A DNA stretch of 64,000 nt from Candidatus Falkowbacteria bacterium (GCA_018674305.1 JABHAL010000008.1:954-64953), one strand, 5' to 3'; shown: positions 1,841-7,414, counted from the stretch's first letter. Numbers and translations are program-made. Notes: a model not told the origin generated them from the sequence alone.

Positions 1841-2302
1841 GATTTAACCATACATCCTGTCATCCTGAATTTATTTCAGGATCTAGGATGTTGCATATTA
1901 GTGTATTGATTCTAACAACCCACCCCTTATTGTCATTCCGGGCTTGACCCGGAATCTGTGTAATTTTACAGCACTTGACAAAGTGTGAATAATGTCGTAA
2001 AGTAGTATGTTCGTAATAAATTTTAATTATGAACGTCATAAAGGGTGAGTAGTTAATTTTACTTACTGCTCACAAAATTTTATATGAATAATTACCAGAC
2101 AATCAAAAAGTTTTGGAGATTTCCTGCAATGGTTTTTGCAGGAGGCCTGTTTCGTGCTGCTCTGGAAGTTTCACAATATAATCCAGTTGCACAAACAAGG
2201 GCGGGATCTCTTTGTATCTTTGATTGGAAGGTGAAATTGTTTGGTGAAAAAAATAAATTTAAGCTTATAACATAACTACTATATAAATTAAAGTTGCAAA
2301 GA

Positions 2303-2327
2303 CGTCCTGGTCTTAGGGCGTTTTTTT
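2303..2327 (+). terminator. hairpin + T7 terminator
   Basis: CGTCCTGGTCTTAGGGCG hairpin followed by TTTTTTT. Confidence 0.5.
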
Positions 2328-2458
2328 GAACTTTAAAAATTTAATTTGGAGCTATAAATATTGATTGGATTCGAATGTTTGATTTTTGAAATTTCGAATT
2401 GTAGTTTAATTGGGAATTGTTTATTGGATATTTGTTATTTTCAAACTAGAGGTTTGGT

Positions 2459-4288
2459 ATGAGCGATTGGGAAATGAAATTGGAAAAAAAGGATCGGAAT
2501 ATTCAGTTTTTACTACGGAGTTTGAGGACTTTATGGGAATTACTTGGTGATCAGAAAAAAGCCATTGGTAAGGCGGTATTTGTTTTATTCTTTATTGAAA
2601 TCCTGAGCGTAAGTTTTCCGTTTTTACTGAAATTGATTTTTGATCAGTTACCGGAAATTATCATTCAGAAGCAGGTAAGCACATATTTAGTTGTATTGAT
2701 AGGTTGTTTACTTGTGGTGAAAGTTGTGGCTCTGGTTTTGAAACATTTTGTGGCGGAAATCAGTTTTTTACGTGGACTTATTAAATTGGAGAACGGTTGG
2801 CCAGTTGTTGTCCAAGAAAAACTACTGAGCCTATCTATCGGTTTTCATGAAACGGAAAATACCGGCAAGAAAATTTCAAAAATTGAAAAGGGATGTGACA
2901 AATTAGTTCAGATTGTAATTGATATGTATTGGGGGATTTTACCGCAGGTATTTTTTCTGCTGATAAACGTTACGGTTGCTATAATTATTGACTGGAAGCT
3001 TGGTTTGCTCTTTATGCTACCATTTATTCCTGCAATGTACATTCATTATCGAATGTTCAATCGGTTCGAGGATGATTGGGAAGCCTGGGAAAAGAAAAAA
3101 GAAGAATCAGGTGGACTTTTATGTCAATCAATTATTAACGTAAGTACTGTTCAGAATTTTGGTCAGGAAAAGCGAGAGTTACAGCAGAATTTAAAGATTA
3201 GGGAATTTATGCAGGATTTGGATATTAATATTTGCGAAAAAATGCAGTTGTACTTTTTTGGCTCCGGCTTAATTTTGCATTTGTTTTACTTTATAACAAT
3301 TGCACTTGGCTTTACCTTTGTTTTTATGGGAATAAGTTCGATCGGAACCATAGTGTATTTAATCGCTACTGGTAATATCACGATTTTCTGCATTGGCGAT
3401 ATTATGCATACCTATACTCGAGTCATGAGAAAGTCAATTTCTGTTAGTCGCATGAAAGAATTGATGGACACGGAAATAGATATTGAAACTTGCCCGGAGG
3501 CAATTGTTCCTAATAGTTACGCAGGTGAATTTGAATTTGATGAAGTGAGTTTTACTTATTCCGGAAAGGATCGGCCGGTTCTGAAAGATTTTTCAATGAT
3601 GATTCATCCTCATCAAATGGTTGCCTTGGTTGGTAAAAGCGGTGAAGGTAAAACTACGATGATCCGTTTAATTTCTAGGATGTATGATATTGATGAAGGT
3701 TCGATAAAGTTGGATGGTAGAGATATTCGTGATCTTGATCTAGAATATCTGAGAAAGATTTTCGCCATTGTCCAGCAAGATGTAGATATTTTCGATACAA
3801 CGCTCCTGGAAAATATTCGTTATCCCGATGCCGAAGCGTCGGAAGAACAGGTGATTGAAGCTCTCAAAGCTTCGCATTTGTATGAAGCCTTGCAGAATTT
3901 GGATCGTTTTCCTGATGGAATTAAAACTCAAGTTGGTGAGCGTGGAATTCGGTTGTCTGGTGGTGAACGACAAAGAGTGGGAATTGCTCGAGCGTATATT
4001 GCGCTTTTGAATGGTGCCCGGGTATTGATTTTGGATGAAGCTACTTCTAATCTAGATTCCGAAGCGGAAAAAGCAATTCAGAAAATGATTGGGAAGGTTA
4101 GAGAAAAATTAAATATTTCAATCATTGCGATTGCTCATCGATTAAGTACGATCCAGAAAGCCGACATGATTTACGTAATCAACAATGGTAATGTTGCAGA
4201 ATCCGGTGATCATTCTCGATTAGTTCAAGAAAATGGATTGTATGCTCATCTGGTAGAATTACAGAAGCTGGGTGATTTACGCGAGTGA
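2459..4288 (+). CDS. ABC transporter, fused permease/ATP-binding (type I exporter, MsbA-like)
   Basis: Six N-terminal TM helices. Walker A GKSGEGKTT, signature LSGGERQRVGIARA, Walker B ILILDEATS, H-loop IAHR. Confidence 0.85.
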   Translation: MSDWEMKLEKKDRNIQFLLRSLRTLWELLGDQKKAIGKAVFVLFFIEILSVSFPFLLKLIFDQLPEIIIQKQVSTYLVVLIGCLLVVKVVALVLKHFVAEISFLRGLIKLENGWPVVVQEKLLSLSIGFHETENTGKKISKIEKGCDKLVQIVIDMYWGILPQVFFLLINVTVAIIIDWKLGLLFMLPFIPAMYIHYRMFNRFEDDWEAWEKKKEESGGLLCQSIINVSTVQNFGQEKRELQQNLKIREFMQDLDINICEKMQLYFFGSGLILHLFYFITIALGFTFVFMGISSIGTIVYLIATGNITIFCIGDIMHTYTRVMRKSISVSRMKELMDTEIDIETCPEAIVPNSYAGEFEFDEVSFTYSGKDRPVLKDFSMMIHPHQMVALVGKSGEGKTTMIRLISRMYDIDEGSIKLDGRDIRDLDLEYLRKIFAIVQQDVDIFDTTLLENIRYPDAEASEEQVIEALKASHLYEALQNLDRFPDGIKTQVGERGIRLSGGERQRVGIARAYIALLNGARVLILDEATSNLDSEAEKAIQKMIGKVREKLNISIIAIAHRLSTIQKADMIYVINNGNVAESGDHSRLVQENGLYAHLVELQKLGDLRE

Positions 4289-4295
4289 AAACACA

Positions 4296-4326
4296 AGCGC
4301 TGACTTAATAAGTCGGCGCTTTTTTA
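4296..4326 (+). terminator. rho-independent terminator, module copy 1 (AGCGCTGACTTAATAAGTCGGCGCT + T6)
   Basis: 25-nt hairpin plus T-run. The same sequence recurs at 5439-5469 and as a variant at 7376-7405. Confidence 0.75.
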
Positions 4327-5474: not shown

Positions 5475-5503
5475 TTGACAAGTGTTAGCCAATTTGTTAT
5501 AAT
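5475..5503 (+). promoter_or_regulatory. sigma70-type promoter TTGACA-N17-TATAAT, module copy 2
   Basis: Consensus hexamers followed by the identical TTGAACATTGAAAATTGGAGAGAAAAATG leader. Confidence 0.6.
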
Positions 5504-5540
5504 TTTTTGTTGAATTGAACATTGAAAATTGGAGAGAAAA

Positions 5541-7364
5541 ATGACTGACACGACCGAGAATGAAGTTGAGGAAAAGAGAGGTTTTAAGGATTTTCGAAAT
5601 GGAATTAAAAACCTTTGGGAACTGATTGGAGACAGAAAGAGAGAAGTAGCATTTCTTGTAGTTACCGTTATATTGGCGCAGTTGATGTCACTGATAACTC
5701 CGTATCTTTTCAAATTGATTTTTGATGAGCTACCGCAAATTTTGGAAAATAGAGAAATCAGTACGTACTTGATTCTTTTGATAGCAGCTCTATTCTTTTT
5801 CAGATTCTTGCATATTGTCGTAGTATTTTTTGTGCAATATATAAGAATGGAAAAAGTAATGGTGAAGTTGGAGCAGTATTGGCCTGTCTTAACTCAGAAA
5901 AAAATGTTGCAACTTTCACTAGGCTATCACGAGCGTGAAAACACTGGCAAGAAAGTCAGTAAAATCACAGAGGGCTGTAACCGACTAAATCAGTTAGTGG
6001 CAGATATTTACTGGAACTTTTTTCCAGAAGTATTGTATCTGATATTCAACGTAGTGATCATCATTGTGTTGGATTGGAAGTTGGGAGTTTTGTTCATAAT
6101 CCCATTTGTCTTCGGAATTGGGATTGGTAACCATGCTCACAAGAAACAATATAAAGAATGGAAATCTCTAACCAAAAAAAGAGAAAAAGCGGACGGCTTT
6201 TTTACTCAGGCACTGCTAAACGTGAAAACTGTTCAAAGTTTTGTACGTGAAGATTATGAAGTCGATCGTCACTCCAATCTGCGTGAAGAAATGGTAGAGC
6301 AGGAGATAAAGGTTGACTATAGTCTTCGTAAATACTTTTTTTCCATGAGTGCCATTTTTAACTTTCTCTTGATAGCGATAATTGTGCTAGGTTTGTACTT
6401 TGTGTATCTGGGAATTAGTACAATCGGTACAGTCGTTTATATCATTGTGACAGGCAATGGAAGTATGGGACGGCTTCACAATTTAATTAGAAGTTACACT
6501 CGGATGATGCGTGGCTTTGTGGTAGTTGATAGGTTGAAAGAGATATTAGAAGAAAAACCAGATGTGGAAAATTCAAATAATGCTTTTATCCCGAAGAGCT
6601 TTACTGGAAAAATTTGTTTTGATAATGTGAGTTTCACTTATCCGAATAAAGATGTTCCAGTTTTGCGAAATCTTTCCGTGGATCTTCAACCAAAAGAAAT
6701 GGTTGCATTGTTTGGAAAGAGTGGAATAGGTAAAACAACGTTAGTTCGACTTATTTGTCGGATGTACGATATTGATGAAGGAAGAATCAGTCTGGATGGA
6801 GCAGACATTCGATTGCTAGATTTATACTGGTATCGTAGGTTGTTTGCAATTGTCCAGCAGGAAGTTGAGATTTTTGATACCAGTCTTCACAATAATATTG
6901 TGTATCCTAGTGACTCGGTAACAGCAGACCAAGTTAAACAGGCAATTAAGGCTGCGCACTTAGACGGAATGGTAAATGACAAGGCTCGTTTTCCCGATGG
7001 ATTGGAAACTCAGGTTGGAGAACGTGGCGTTCGACTTTCCGGTGGTGAGAAACAACGCGTTGGTATTGCTAGAGCCTATGTGGCCTTGCTTCACGGCGCA
7101 CGTATACTTATTCTGGACGAAGCTACTTCCAACTTGGATTCAGAAGCGGAAGAAGTCGTTCACGAGATGATTGATAAGGTCAGAAAAACAATGGACATTT
7201 CCATTGTGGCAATTGCGCATAGAATTTCTACCATCAAGAAAGCTGATCGCATTTGTGTGATTGATGATGGTGTAATTCTGGAGCAAGGTTCTCACAAAGA
7301 GCTGATTGATTTGCAGGGACATTATGCGAAATTGGTCAAGCTACAAAAGGTGAACGGTCTATAA
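5541..7364 (+). CDS. ABC transporter, fused permease/ATP-binding (paralog of 2459-4288)
   Basis: Walker A GKSGIGKTT, signature LSGGEKQRVGIARA, Walker B ILILDEATS, H-loop IAHR. The TTG at 5529 was trimmed to the ATG at 5541. Confidence 0.85.
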   Translation: MTDTTENEVEEKRGFKDFRNGIKNLWELIGDRKREVAFLVVTVILAQLMSLITPYLFKLIFDELPQILENREISTYLILLIAALFFFRFLHIVVVFFVQYIRMEKVMVKLEQYWPVLTQKKMLQLSLGYHERENTGKKVSKITEGCNRLNQLVADIYWNFFPEVLYLIFNVVIIIVLDWKLGVLFIIPFVFGIGIGNHAHKKQYKEWKSLTKKREKADGFFTQALLNVKTVQSFVREDYEVDRHSNLREEMVEQEIKVDYSLRKYFFSMSAIFNFLLIAIIVLGLYFVYLGISTIGTVVYIIVTGNGSMGRLHNLIRSYTRMMRGFVVVDRLKEILEEKPDVENSNNAFIPKSFTGKICFDNVSFTYPNKDVPVLRNLSVDLQPKEMVALFGKSGIGKTTLVRLICRMYDIDEGRISLDGADIRLLDLYWYRRLFAIVQQEVEIFDTSLHNNIVYPSDSVTADQVKQAIKAAHLDGMVNDKARFPDGLETQVGERGVRLSGGEKQRVGIARAYVALLHGARILILDEATSNLDSEAEEVVHEMIDKVRKTMDISIVAIAHRISTIKKADRICVIDDGVILEQGSHKELIDLQGHYAKLVKLQKVNGL

Positions 7365-7375
7365 AGTAAACACAC

Positions 7376-7405
7376 AAGCGCTAACTTAATGAGTTGGTGC
7401 TTTTT
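7376..7405 (+). terminator. rho-independent terminator, module copy 3 (variant with G-U pairs)
   Basis: AGCGCTAACTTAATGAGTTGGTGCT + T5. Confidence 0.65.
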
Positions 7406-7414
7406 TAATACAGA

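Follow-up and report, generated by a model that had tools for sequence, protein, structure and literature searches.

Phage "morons" are promoter-gene-terminator insertions, and in Bacillus subtilis, bmrB-bmrCD is a leader open reading frame (ORF) transcription attenuator of an ATP-binding cassette (ABC) exporter. Here, we analyzed a block in a 64-kb stretch (hereafter, the window) of the genome of a marine Candidatus Falkowbacteria bacterium (Patescibacteria; GCA_018674305.1 JABHAL010000008.1:954-64953), in which the genes for two ABC exporters, namely ABC1 and ABC2, flank the gene for a membrane protein, X, that resembles M48 proteases (Table 1). As in a moron, X is a single gene with its own promoter and terminator between two resident genes; its expression signals, however, appear to be a copy of the resident spacer rather than imported, and its context is chromosomal, not viral. 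Our reading, to which we assign a probability of roughly 0.68, is that the block is a changeable gene slot between the PFOR beta gene and uvrA, that ABC2 and X were added to a core within this slot, and that a spacer repeat brackets X.

The three consecutive plus-strand genes are present as a first-pass annotation of the sequence had described them, with only small coordinate slips, and its sequence observations overall proved to be statistically solid. The locus is essentially identical (≤1 mismatch over the 12 kb compared) in contigs from independent marine samples and assemblers (L001-L006 and L031-L033), and the arrangement is therefore not an assembly artefact. The 100% identity over 12 kb across marine samples indicates that the population is clonal and widely distributed.

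Table 1. Features of the block from p63 to uvrA; positions are counted from the first nucleotide of the window
Feature	Coordinates	Strand	Description
p63	2084-2275	+	Conserved 63-aa ORF immediately 5' of ABC1
T0	2298-2327	+	Terminator/attenuator hairpin between p63 and ABC1
ABC1	2459-4288	+	Full-length half-transporter ABC exporter, 609 aa (Pfam)
IG1 (spacer copy 1)	4288-4401	+	ABC1-X spacer; terminator, promoter, leader
X	4398-5432	+	344-aa polytopic membrane protein; HEFGH at residues 213-217, EEIWAD at residues 289-294
IG2 (spacer copy 2)	5431-5544	+	X-ABC2 spacer; terminator, promoter, leader
ABC2	5541-7364	+	Second full-length ABC exporter, 607 aa from the ATG after the shared leader
T3	7376-7402	+	Third terminator hairpin copy; changes are structure-preserving
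Long inverted repeat, ACGGAT units	7409-7533	.	Between T3 and the uvrA promoter
uvrA promoter and uvrA	7543-7571 and 7623-10496	+	Conserved right border of the slot; Pfam UvrA domains

The spacer repeat on either side of X

The two spacers that flank X, IG1 and IG2, are 114 nt long and 89% identical to each other, and the repeat that they form starts inside a stop codon and ends one nucleotide past the next ATG. The coding ends of X and those of ABC1 and ABC2, compared for a trace of coding duplication, share no similarity. The regulatory modules had been estimated to be ∼85-90% conserved, far above the flanking genes, and this estimate holds, the spacers being 89% identical. A regulatory repeat that is much younger, or better preserved, than the genes that it adjoins is thus supported. 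The module was not found to accompany every gene, as had been proposed; only X and ABC2 carry the shared promoter and leader, while the 5' region of ABC1 has no relation to the shared spacer and contains no promoter-like site. Copies of the module were counted within the window. A metagenome scan for the hairpin returned nothing, and a scan for the leader returned only an unrelated GC-rich contig, the collection evidently being without this locus.

Each spacer comprises (i) a terminator-like hairpin, (ii) a promoter, and (iii) a leader. The 25-nt hairpin AGCGCTGACTTAATAAGTCGGCGCT, which had been reported to recur after each stop codon, does so exactly at 4296-4320 and 5439-5463 (none is expected in shuffled sequences) and, as the variant AGCGCTAACTTAATGAGTTGGTGCT, at 7377-7401, one base further on than first placed (7376). 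A perfect 12-bp stem and a 3-nt loop make up the hairpin, each copy is then followed by T6, and the folds have energies of -17.0 and -13.6 kcal/mol (z of -6.7 and -5.2, respectively). The terminator hairpins extend over 4295-4321, plus the T-run, in IG1 and over 5438-5464 in IG2, and the three hairpins are the strongest terminator-like sites within window positions 1-13000. With its G+C-rich stem-loop, U-run, and compensatory change, the hairpin has the properties of an intrinsic terminator and is predicted to terminate transcription.

Behind the hairpins, both spacers contain the predicted -35 box, 17-nt spacing, and TAAATT or TATAAT -10 box, namely TTGACA-17-TAAATT at 4332-4360 in IG1 (-35 at 4332-4337; -10 at 4355-4360) and TTGACA-17-TATAAT at 5475-5503 in IG2 (-35 at 5475-5480; -10 at 5498-5503), the latter scoring 12/12 and both having a TG extension. 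The leader, 29 nt long and ending in ATG, is exactly repeated at 4372-4400 and 5515-5543; its identity between the copies had been correctly noted, although its starts (4372 and 5515) had been placed at 4371 and 5514. In IG1, the leader proper (4372-4397) is unstructured and holds GGAGAG at 4388-4393 in front of the ATG at 4398, and in IG2, it spans 5515-5540 and is followed by the ATG at 5541.

The sister species (L020), which has a single spacer between ABC1 and ABC2, allows the history of these parts to be examined. IG1 is 89% identical to this spacer as well. IG1 and IG2 differ at 12 positions, 11 of which fall inside a 33-column promoter core (permutation p < 1e-5), and in this core, IG2 differs from L020 at 11 columns and IG1 at 4, which makes the IG2 core as diverged from L020 as neutral sites are. 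The terminator zone is identical in IG1 and IG2, yet 8 of its columns differ from L020, including compensatory changes in the stem. The -35 block and 27 nt of the leader are 100% identical in IG1, IG2, and L020, while fourfold-degenerate sites are only 56-61% identical between the window and the sister species, which directly demonstrates selection on the unit. The identity of the terminators within the genome, together with their 8-column distance from the sister, argues instead for gene conversion or very recent copying of this part. The earlier proposal, that the regulatory unit is either under selection or subject to gene conversion, is supported in both halves: selection accounts for the -35 block and leader, and conversion or very recent copying for the terminator.

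The hairpin belongs to a family (T) that includes T1-T3 of the window, T1 and T3 of L020, and the copies that stand behind ABC1 in L007, L008, and L027. Double changes affect 4 of the 12 stem pairs across seven hairpin copies. The family is thereby shown to be an old, functional RNA structure, with copies on the flanks of each added gene.

Two other readings of the repeat bear on these sequences. The first, raised by the first-pass annotation, is that the extended -35 sequences are operator sites of a small regulon, co-regulating X, ABC2, and a gene at 43911. The 15-mer TATTGACAAAAGTGA at 4330 does have an exact match in front of that unrelated gene, at 43835-43849 rather than at 43838 as first located, the leader is conserved beyond the plain needs of a ribosome-binding site, and it holds three tandem ATTGAAN-type heptamers. 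However, TTGACAA(A) is the usual -35 sequence of this genome, being common to many promoters of the window, and only ∼6-7 additional bases are really shared; the box reads TATTGACAAGTGTTA in IG2 (four mismatches) and TATTGACAAAAATGA in the sister species (one mismatch); the gene at 43911 lacks the leader; and no transcription-factor gene adjoins the block. We regard such a regulon as very unlikely.

The heptamers themselves (ATTGAAC, ATTGAAA, and ATTGGAG, in tandem) occupy 4372-4393 and 5515-5536. An exact 23-nt match to the leader occurs in an otherwise unrelated GC-rich metagenome contig (L023, 39-61), again behind AAATTGGGG, and a leader-like run, AAATTGGAAATTGGAGAATTGAAA, lies at about window 43758-43781. 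Such matches elsewhere could be due to chance or to a shared protein-binding motif.

The second is an integron-like or other site-specific cassette array, with the hairpin as a recombination site; a similar hairpin does stand 3' of each ORF, and whole genes are apparently gained and lost together with it. The hairpin, however, with its perfect 12-bp stem, 3-nt loop, and U-run, has the architecture of an intrinsic terminator and not that of the imperfect, bipartite attC-type site, the repeat also contains a promoter and a leader, no integrase or recombinase domain is encoded within 10 kb, and relatives without any array have this hairpin, too, behind their single ABC1. An attC array was rejected on the hairpin architecture and the absence of a recombinase within 10 kb, and the probability of this explanation is close to negligible.

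Gene content of the slot and the direction of change

Relatives were found through ABC1, and the core was judged where each end of the slot could be read. Across the readable relatives, the conserved core consists of a small ORF, ABC1, the T hairpin, and uvrA. In L008 and L010, the order is PFOR beta subunit, ABC1, and uvrA; in L007 and L014, ABC1 is directly followed by uvrA, and the contigs stop short of the PFOR gene; and three further lineages have PFOR beta, ABC1, and uvrA with no M48 gene, two of these three having a small ORF before ABC1. The sister species (L020/L021) contains ABC1 (90% identity), one spacer, ABC2 (88% identity), and uvrA, with no X, and L020 has the order p63-ABC1-ABC2.

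Genes for M48 proteins of ∼350 aa occupy the slot in 4 of 12 lineages, at varying positions, and their products are 21-27% identical between lineages whose UvrA proteins are 83-94% identical. In the relatives, these proteins measure 347-361 aa. A groundwater relative (L024/L025) has PFOR beta, two small ORFs, the M48 gene, and uvrA, with no ABC gene; L016 has ABC1, recQ (9145-11406, minus strand), a 352-aa M48 gene, and uvrA; and L027 has PFOR beta, a 361-aa M48 gene, p65, ABC1, and uvrA. The best match of X in a library of 1.8e9 representatives is P0122, the slot-resident M48 protein of L024. This M48 subfamily is very fast-evolving and overlooked by standard family models.

Insertions of unrelated genes, namely a recQ helicase in L016 and genes for an N6-methyltransferase, an S24 peptidase, and an HNH protein in L028 (1907-5460), support the idea of a hot spot of gene content between PFOR and uvrA. 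In L027 (7833-8170), TTGACA-17-TATAAA and what looks, by eye, like a hydrophobic ORF of 37 aa (MSTSQCLLIVVIAQLPLFF...) come directly after the ABC1 terminator and before uvrA; the small cargo behind the ABC1 hairpin therefore differs between lineages.

If the block is such a changeable slot, the core would have been a promoter, p63, T0, ABC1, the T hairpin, and then uvrA, to which two genes were added, and the near-identical modules would be the spacer that already lay between ABC1 and ABC2, directly repeated on either side of X and reaching from the stop codon to the start codon. The upstream transcript would end at the 12-bp hairpin and its U-run, a sigma-70-type promoter whose -10 box is extended would restart transcription after ∼10 nt, and the unstructured A/U-rich leader would then supply GGAGAG at a distance of four bases from the start codon. 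In this arrangement, X and ABC2 would each form an insulated single-gene unit, while ABC1 would rely on transcripts that start at the p63 promoter and read through T0. Purifying selection would keep the -35 block and the leader alike, gene conversion or recent copying would do so for the terminator, and the IG2 promoter core would have drifted, or been reshaped, to the consensus TATAAT. The spacer repeats would be a natural substrate for cassette loss, and X could be an old resident that the sister species lost by recombination between the spacer copies.

On the direction of the event, we lean slightly toward X as an old resident, with loss in the sister species, over a new insertion in this lineage. 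An old X is favored by the slot-resident homologs in distant relatives, by its native base composition, by the near-neutral divergence of the IG2 core, and by the mechanistic ease of deletion between 114-nt direct repeats. A recent insertion, in which X, in this lineage only, would have reached the ABC1-ABC2 spacer by a move or by horizontal acquisition, with copying of the spacer and rapid reshaping of the ABC2-side core by selection, has several observations in its favor: T1 does not differ from T2 at all (100% identity), and both show a state, GTCGG, that is absent from every other copy; the three closest relatives (L020, L007, and L008) all lack X; IG2 has moved to a perfect TTGACA-17-TATAAT promoter; and the M48 gene of L027 lies at a different place, upstream of p65. 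On the other hand, the divergence of the IG2 core (11/33 columns) is close to the neutral between-species level while 76 flanking columns are unchanged, the base composition of X is native, the search for a donor, a mobile-element gene, or a phage match was negative, no plasmid match was convincing, and the repeat ends exactly at stop and start codons, unlike the product of a random insertion. We hold this alternative to be less likely than not. All of the contigs read that have this ABC2 also carry X (24/24), with no population variant lacking X among them, and X is fixed in the host species, whichever the direction of the event.

Several points weigh against the changeable-slot reading or narrow it. 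An old X requires loss in L007 and L008 as well as in L020, and gene conversion for the exact identity of T1 and T2; a new X, conversely, implies 11 changes in a 33-column core and none in 76 flanking columns, which cannot be neutral drift. The transcription pattern, terminator efficiency, and promoter use are predictions, and the copy search is confined to 64 kb of the genome, with the metagenome scans being powerless here. The structural model of X is only moderately confident (pLDDT 63.6), with Ste24-type sequences in its alignment. Finally, an M48 gene is co-located with ABC1 in three of the four M48-bearing loci, which leaves some room for a functional link.

Protease X, the exporters, and the question of a joint pathway

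X was assigned to the M48-like proteases on the basis of its HExxH...ExxAD arrangement, and its homologs bear this out, if not a direct family search. X itself has no Pfam match at E ≤ 0.1 (including PF01435, Peptidase_M48, whose curated threshold it does not reach), no match to an NCBIfam M48 model, and no sequence match in the PDB. A word-seeded search of 5.8e9 clusters returned X only, and one further, weak match appeared when an alignment of three M48 sequences served as the query. A phmmer/full HMMER pass over the 1.8e9 representatives gave seven remote matches (E from 7e-7 to 3e-4), all seven of which pass Pfam PF01435 and four of which carry the Ste24-type Peptidase_M48_N domain; by this transitive homology, X is placed in the M48 clan, although its identity to any known protein is at most ∼28%. 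Conservation of the motif residues in homologs was likewise upheld: His213, Glu214, His217, Glu290, Asp294, and Pro327 are invariant in alignments with Pfam-validated M48 proteins, and Arg332 and Ile333 are invariant too in a three-member subfamily alignment. The annotation of X at JGI reads "Zn-dependent protease". On this homology, X is a genuine but extreme and divergent Ste24-like M48 member.

An AlphaFold2 (AF2) model of X, guided by a seven-sequence alignment that included Ste24-type proteins, reached a pLDDT of 63.6 and a pTM of 0.60, with a confident catalytic core; a model made without an alignment (pLDDT 50) was not used. In a fold search of the PDB with the former, the top 11 matches were all ZMPSTE24 or Ste24p (TM 0.42-0.50), a result that is not independent of the Ste24-type sequences in the alignment; the best match was ZMPSTE24 (E of 6e-7, TM of ∼0.49), and BlaR1 and HtpX were weaker.

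With Ste24/ZMPSTE24 (M48A), X shares (i) HExxH at the start of a membrane helix, (ii) the downstream Glu290 with an Asp four residues on, (iii) HP....RI as a motif at the C terminus, and (iv) membrane helices that are bundled at the N terminus. It differs in being ∼70-130 residues shorter than Ste24-type proteins, in having approximately four N-terminal helices rather than five, and in lacking a CAAX or prenylation context. HtpX (M48B) and BlaR1/MecR1 (M56) are, like X, membrane-embedded gluzincins with the same motif order; HtpX, however, has a 2+2 helix topology, BlaR1 has an extracellular sensor domain that is absent from X, and neither of their Pfam families is matched by X itself. The gene is of native base composition (GC 0.349, GC3 0.31), and it has no match in a phage collection and one weak match, annotated as M48, in a plasmid collection. 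X is most likely an active membrane metalloprotease for the quality control or processing of membrane and envelope proteins, and not an obligate partner of the exporters.

Both exporters consist of the Pfam domains ABC_membrane (PF00664) and ABC_tran (PF00005), and in their pairwise alignment, the Walker A, Q-loop, signature, Walker B, and H-loop sequences are canonical in both, as the first-pass annotation had stated for all but the Q-loop. For ABC2, its reading of a full exporter stands; the length of 611 aa that it gave counts from an upstream TTG at 5529, in place of the leader ATG. As in MsbA/Sav1866-type (ABCB-like) half-transporters, including the heterodimeric BmrCD and TM287/288, each chain has one transmembrane domain and one nucleotide-binding domain with canonical motifs. 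MsbA (TIGR02203) is the best NCBIfam similarity of both, yet ABC1 and ABC2 fall below every NCBIfam equivalog cut-off, scoring 319 and 342 bits, respectively, against the 602 bits of the MsbA model. Neither exporter reaches the cut-off of an NCBIfam bacteriocin or type I secretion model, and Pfam detects no C39 peptidase domain in either. Unlike the heterodimeric pairs, ABC1 and ABC2 both have fully consensus ATP sites, and their genes are separated by a terminator, a promoter, and another gene. ABC1 stands alone in most relatives, and homodimers are therefore at least as likely as a heterodimer.

ABC1 is the ortholog of the single exporter that adjoins uvrA in the relatives, with identities of 90%, 71%, 68%, and 61% in L020, L007, L008, and L027, respectively. 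For ABC2, which is 48% identical to ABC1, one ortholog was found (P0003, 88%), all remaining matches being at ≤52%, and it branches apart from the ABC1 clade in a neighbor-joining tree; ABC2 therefore did not arise from ABC1 by recent copying. On the tree and the identities, we rejected an origin of ABC2 by tandem duplication of its neighbor, in agreement with the earlier argument against a recent whole-gene duplication. ABC2 is, to judge from its homologs, a distinct exporter lineage, common only to one sister species.

The linkage of an M48 protease with ABC exporters had been compared to the Ste24 and Ste6 pair and taken as a hint of a dedicated peptide or lipopeptide maturation-export system. 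In such a system, X would trim a small precursor, possibly p63, and ABC1 and ABC2 would export it. The analogy rests on co-location in the window genome and in two others (L016 and L027), where the M48 gene and ABC1 share the slot; further, the small ORF p63 always precedes ABC1, the best structural match of X is the Ste24 family, and X is fixed in the contigs read despite its flanking direct repeats. However, the sister species keeps p63-ABC1-ABC2 without X, an M48 gene is missing from at least seven lineages that have ABC1 (most relatives having ABC1 alone), and L024/L025 has the M48 gene without any ABC gene. Moreover, the position of the M48 gene relative to ABC1 varies, with recQ on the opposite strand between them in L016; the exporters have no C39 domain and stay below the bacteriocin and type I secretion cut-offs; and no modification enzyme is encoded within 10 kb. 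Bacteria have no known pathway of CAAX prenylation. In the literature, we found nothing specific on an M48-ABC linkage or on this clade. These distributions show that the exporters and the protease are not obligate partners, and we consider a maturation-export system of the Ste24/Ste6 type unlikely.

A more speculative proposal, to which we give slightly lower odds still, is that Patescibacteria of this clade have a recombination-prone "expression-cassette" slot 5' of uvrA, in which the module would serve both as a portable expression unit and as a homology arm for the ORF-exact gain, swap, and loss of envelope genes. In this proposal, diversifying selection would act on a system, made up of the hypervariable Ste24-like protease, p63, and the exporters, that remodels the surface facing a host or phages.

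Flanking units and biological meaning

The ORF p63, missed by the first-pass annotation, lies directly 5' of the ABC1 ortholog in six lineages (the window, L020, L007, L027, L008, and L015), as detected with a hidden Markov model built from four copies. Its alignment contains one gap, in frame; it has no Pfam family; and its C terminus (...KFKLIT) has no CAAX, with no recognised leader. Relative to the sister species, p63 has 70% protein identity and 20 of 21 identical fourfold sites, which suggests that an additional constraint acts at the RNA level. The p63 promoter is TTGACA-17-TAAAGT at 1975-2003, and no plus-strand promoter-like site occurs between 2004 and the start of ABC1. In a single-sequence fold of 2225-2345, T0 forms a 12-bp stem followed by a U-run; its 5' arm, GACGTCCTG, is kept in five of the six lineages, L027 having a compensated variant (ACATCCTG paired with CAGGATGT), and its 3' arm has indels in the six-lineage alignment. 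Overall, a conserved unit at 1960-2458 comprises, in the six lineages, a promoter, a 5' stem-loop (GTTCGTAAT...ATTATGAACG), the 63-aa ORF, and a terminator, and a separate ABC1 promoter is absent in most of these lineages.

ABC1 has no promoter-like site of its own and is probably expressed from the p63 promoter, by transcripts that read through T0. The arrangement of p63, T0, and ABC1 resembles an attenuator with a leader ORF, or else p63 may be a small partner protein of the exporter. The order is the same as that of bmrB-bmrCD, namely a promoter, a small ORF, a terminator hairpin, and an exporter without its own promoter; p63, however, is conserved as a protein in six lineages, an unusual property for a peptide that acts only as a leader.

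On the downstream side, T3 occupies the position of the ABC1 terminator of the relatives, and the sequence 3' of it shares homology with the spacer between ABC1 and uvrA in L007 and L008. The inverted repeat that follows is 125 nt long and folds at -50.6 kcal/mol (z = -9.1); its ACGGAT units are confined to it within the window, and the same layout is built from GCGGAT units in L007 and from TACAGA units in L008, with none in L020. The uvrA promoter scores 11/12 and is conserved in L020, L007, and L008. Rfam matches in the window are limited to three tRNAs, with no other RNA families. Two large conserved ORFs have no Pfam family, one of 563 aa (window 10658-12349, 3' of uvrA) and one of 553-710 aa (L001 4743-6404 and L002 4272-6404) that separates, as an insertion, the PFOR alpha gene from the beta gene; a protein with a T4SS_pilin match is encoded at the corresponding position of L029.

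In summary, all components of this block belong to known kinds, and the similarity of its modules reflects the duplication of an intergenic spacer around a single gene and is not the mark of a co-evolved pathway, a result that guards against over-reading the Ste24/Ste6 analogy. What the locus records is the gain or loss of a gene at a variable site of the genome, with no real evidence of a peptide-processing pathway, and the interval from the PFOR genes to uvrA is documented as a hot spot of gene content in streamlined genomes of a candidate phylum. The spacer, which comes from an uncultured lineage, combines terminator, promoter, and leader in a compact and strongly conserved unit and is a possible expression part, while the attenuator-like arrangement of p63, T0, and ABC1 may control the one exporter that is kept by the clade.

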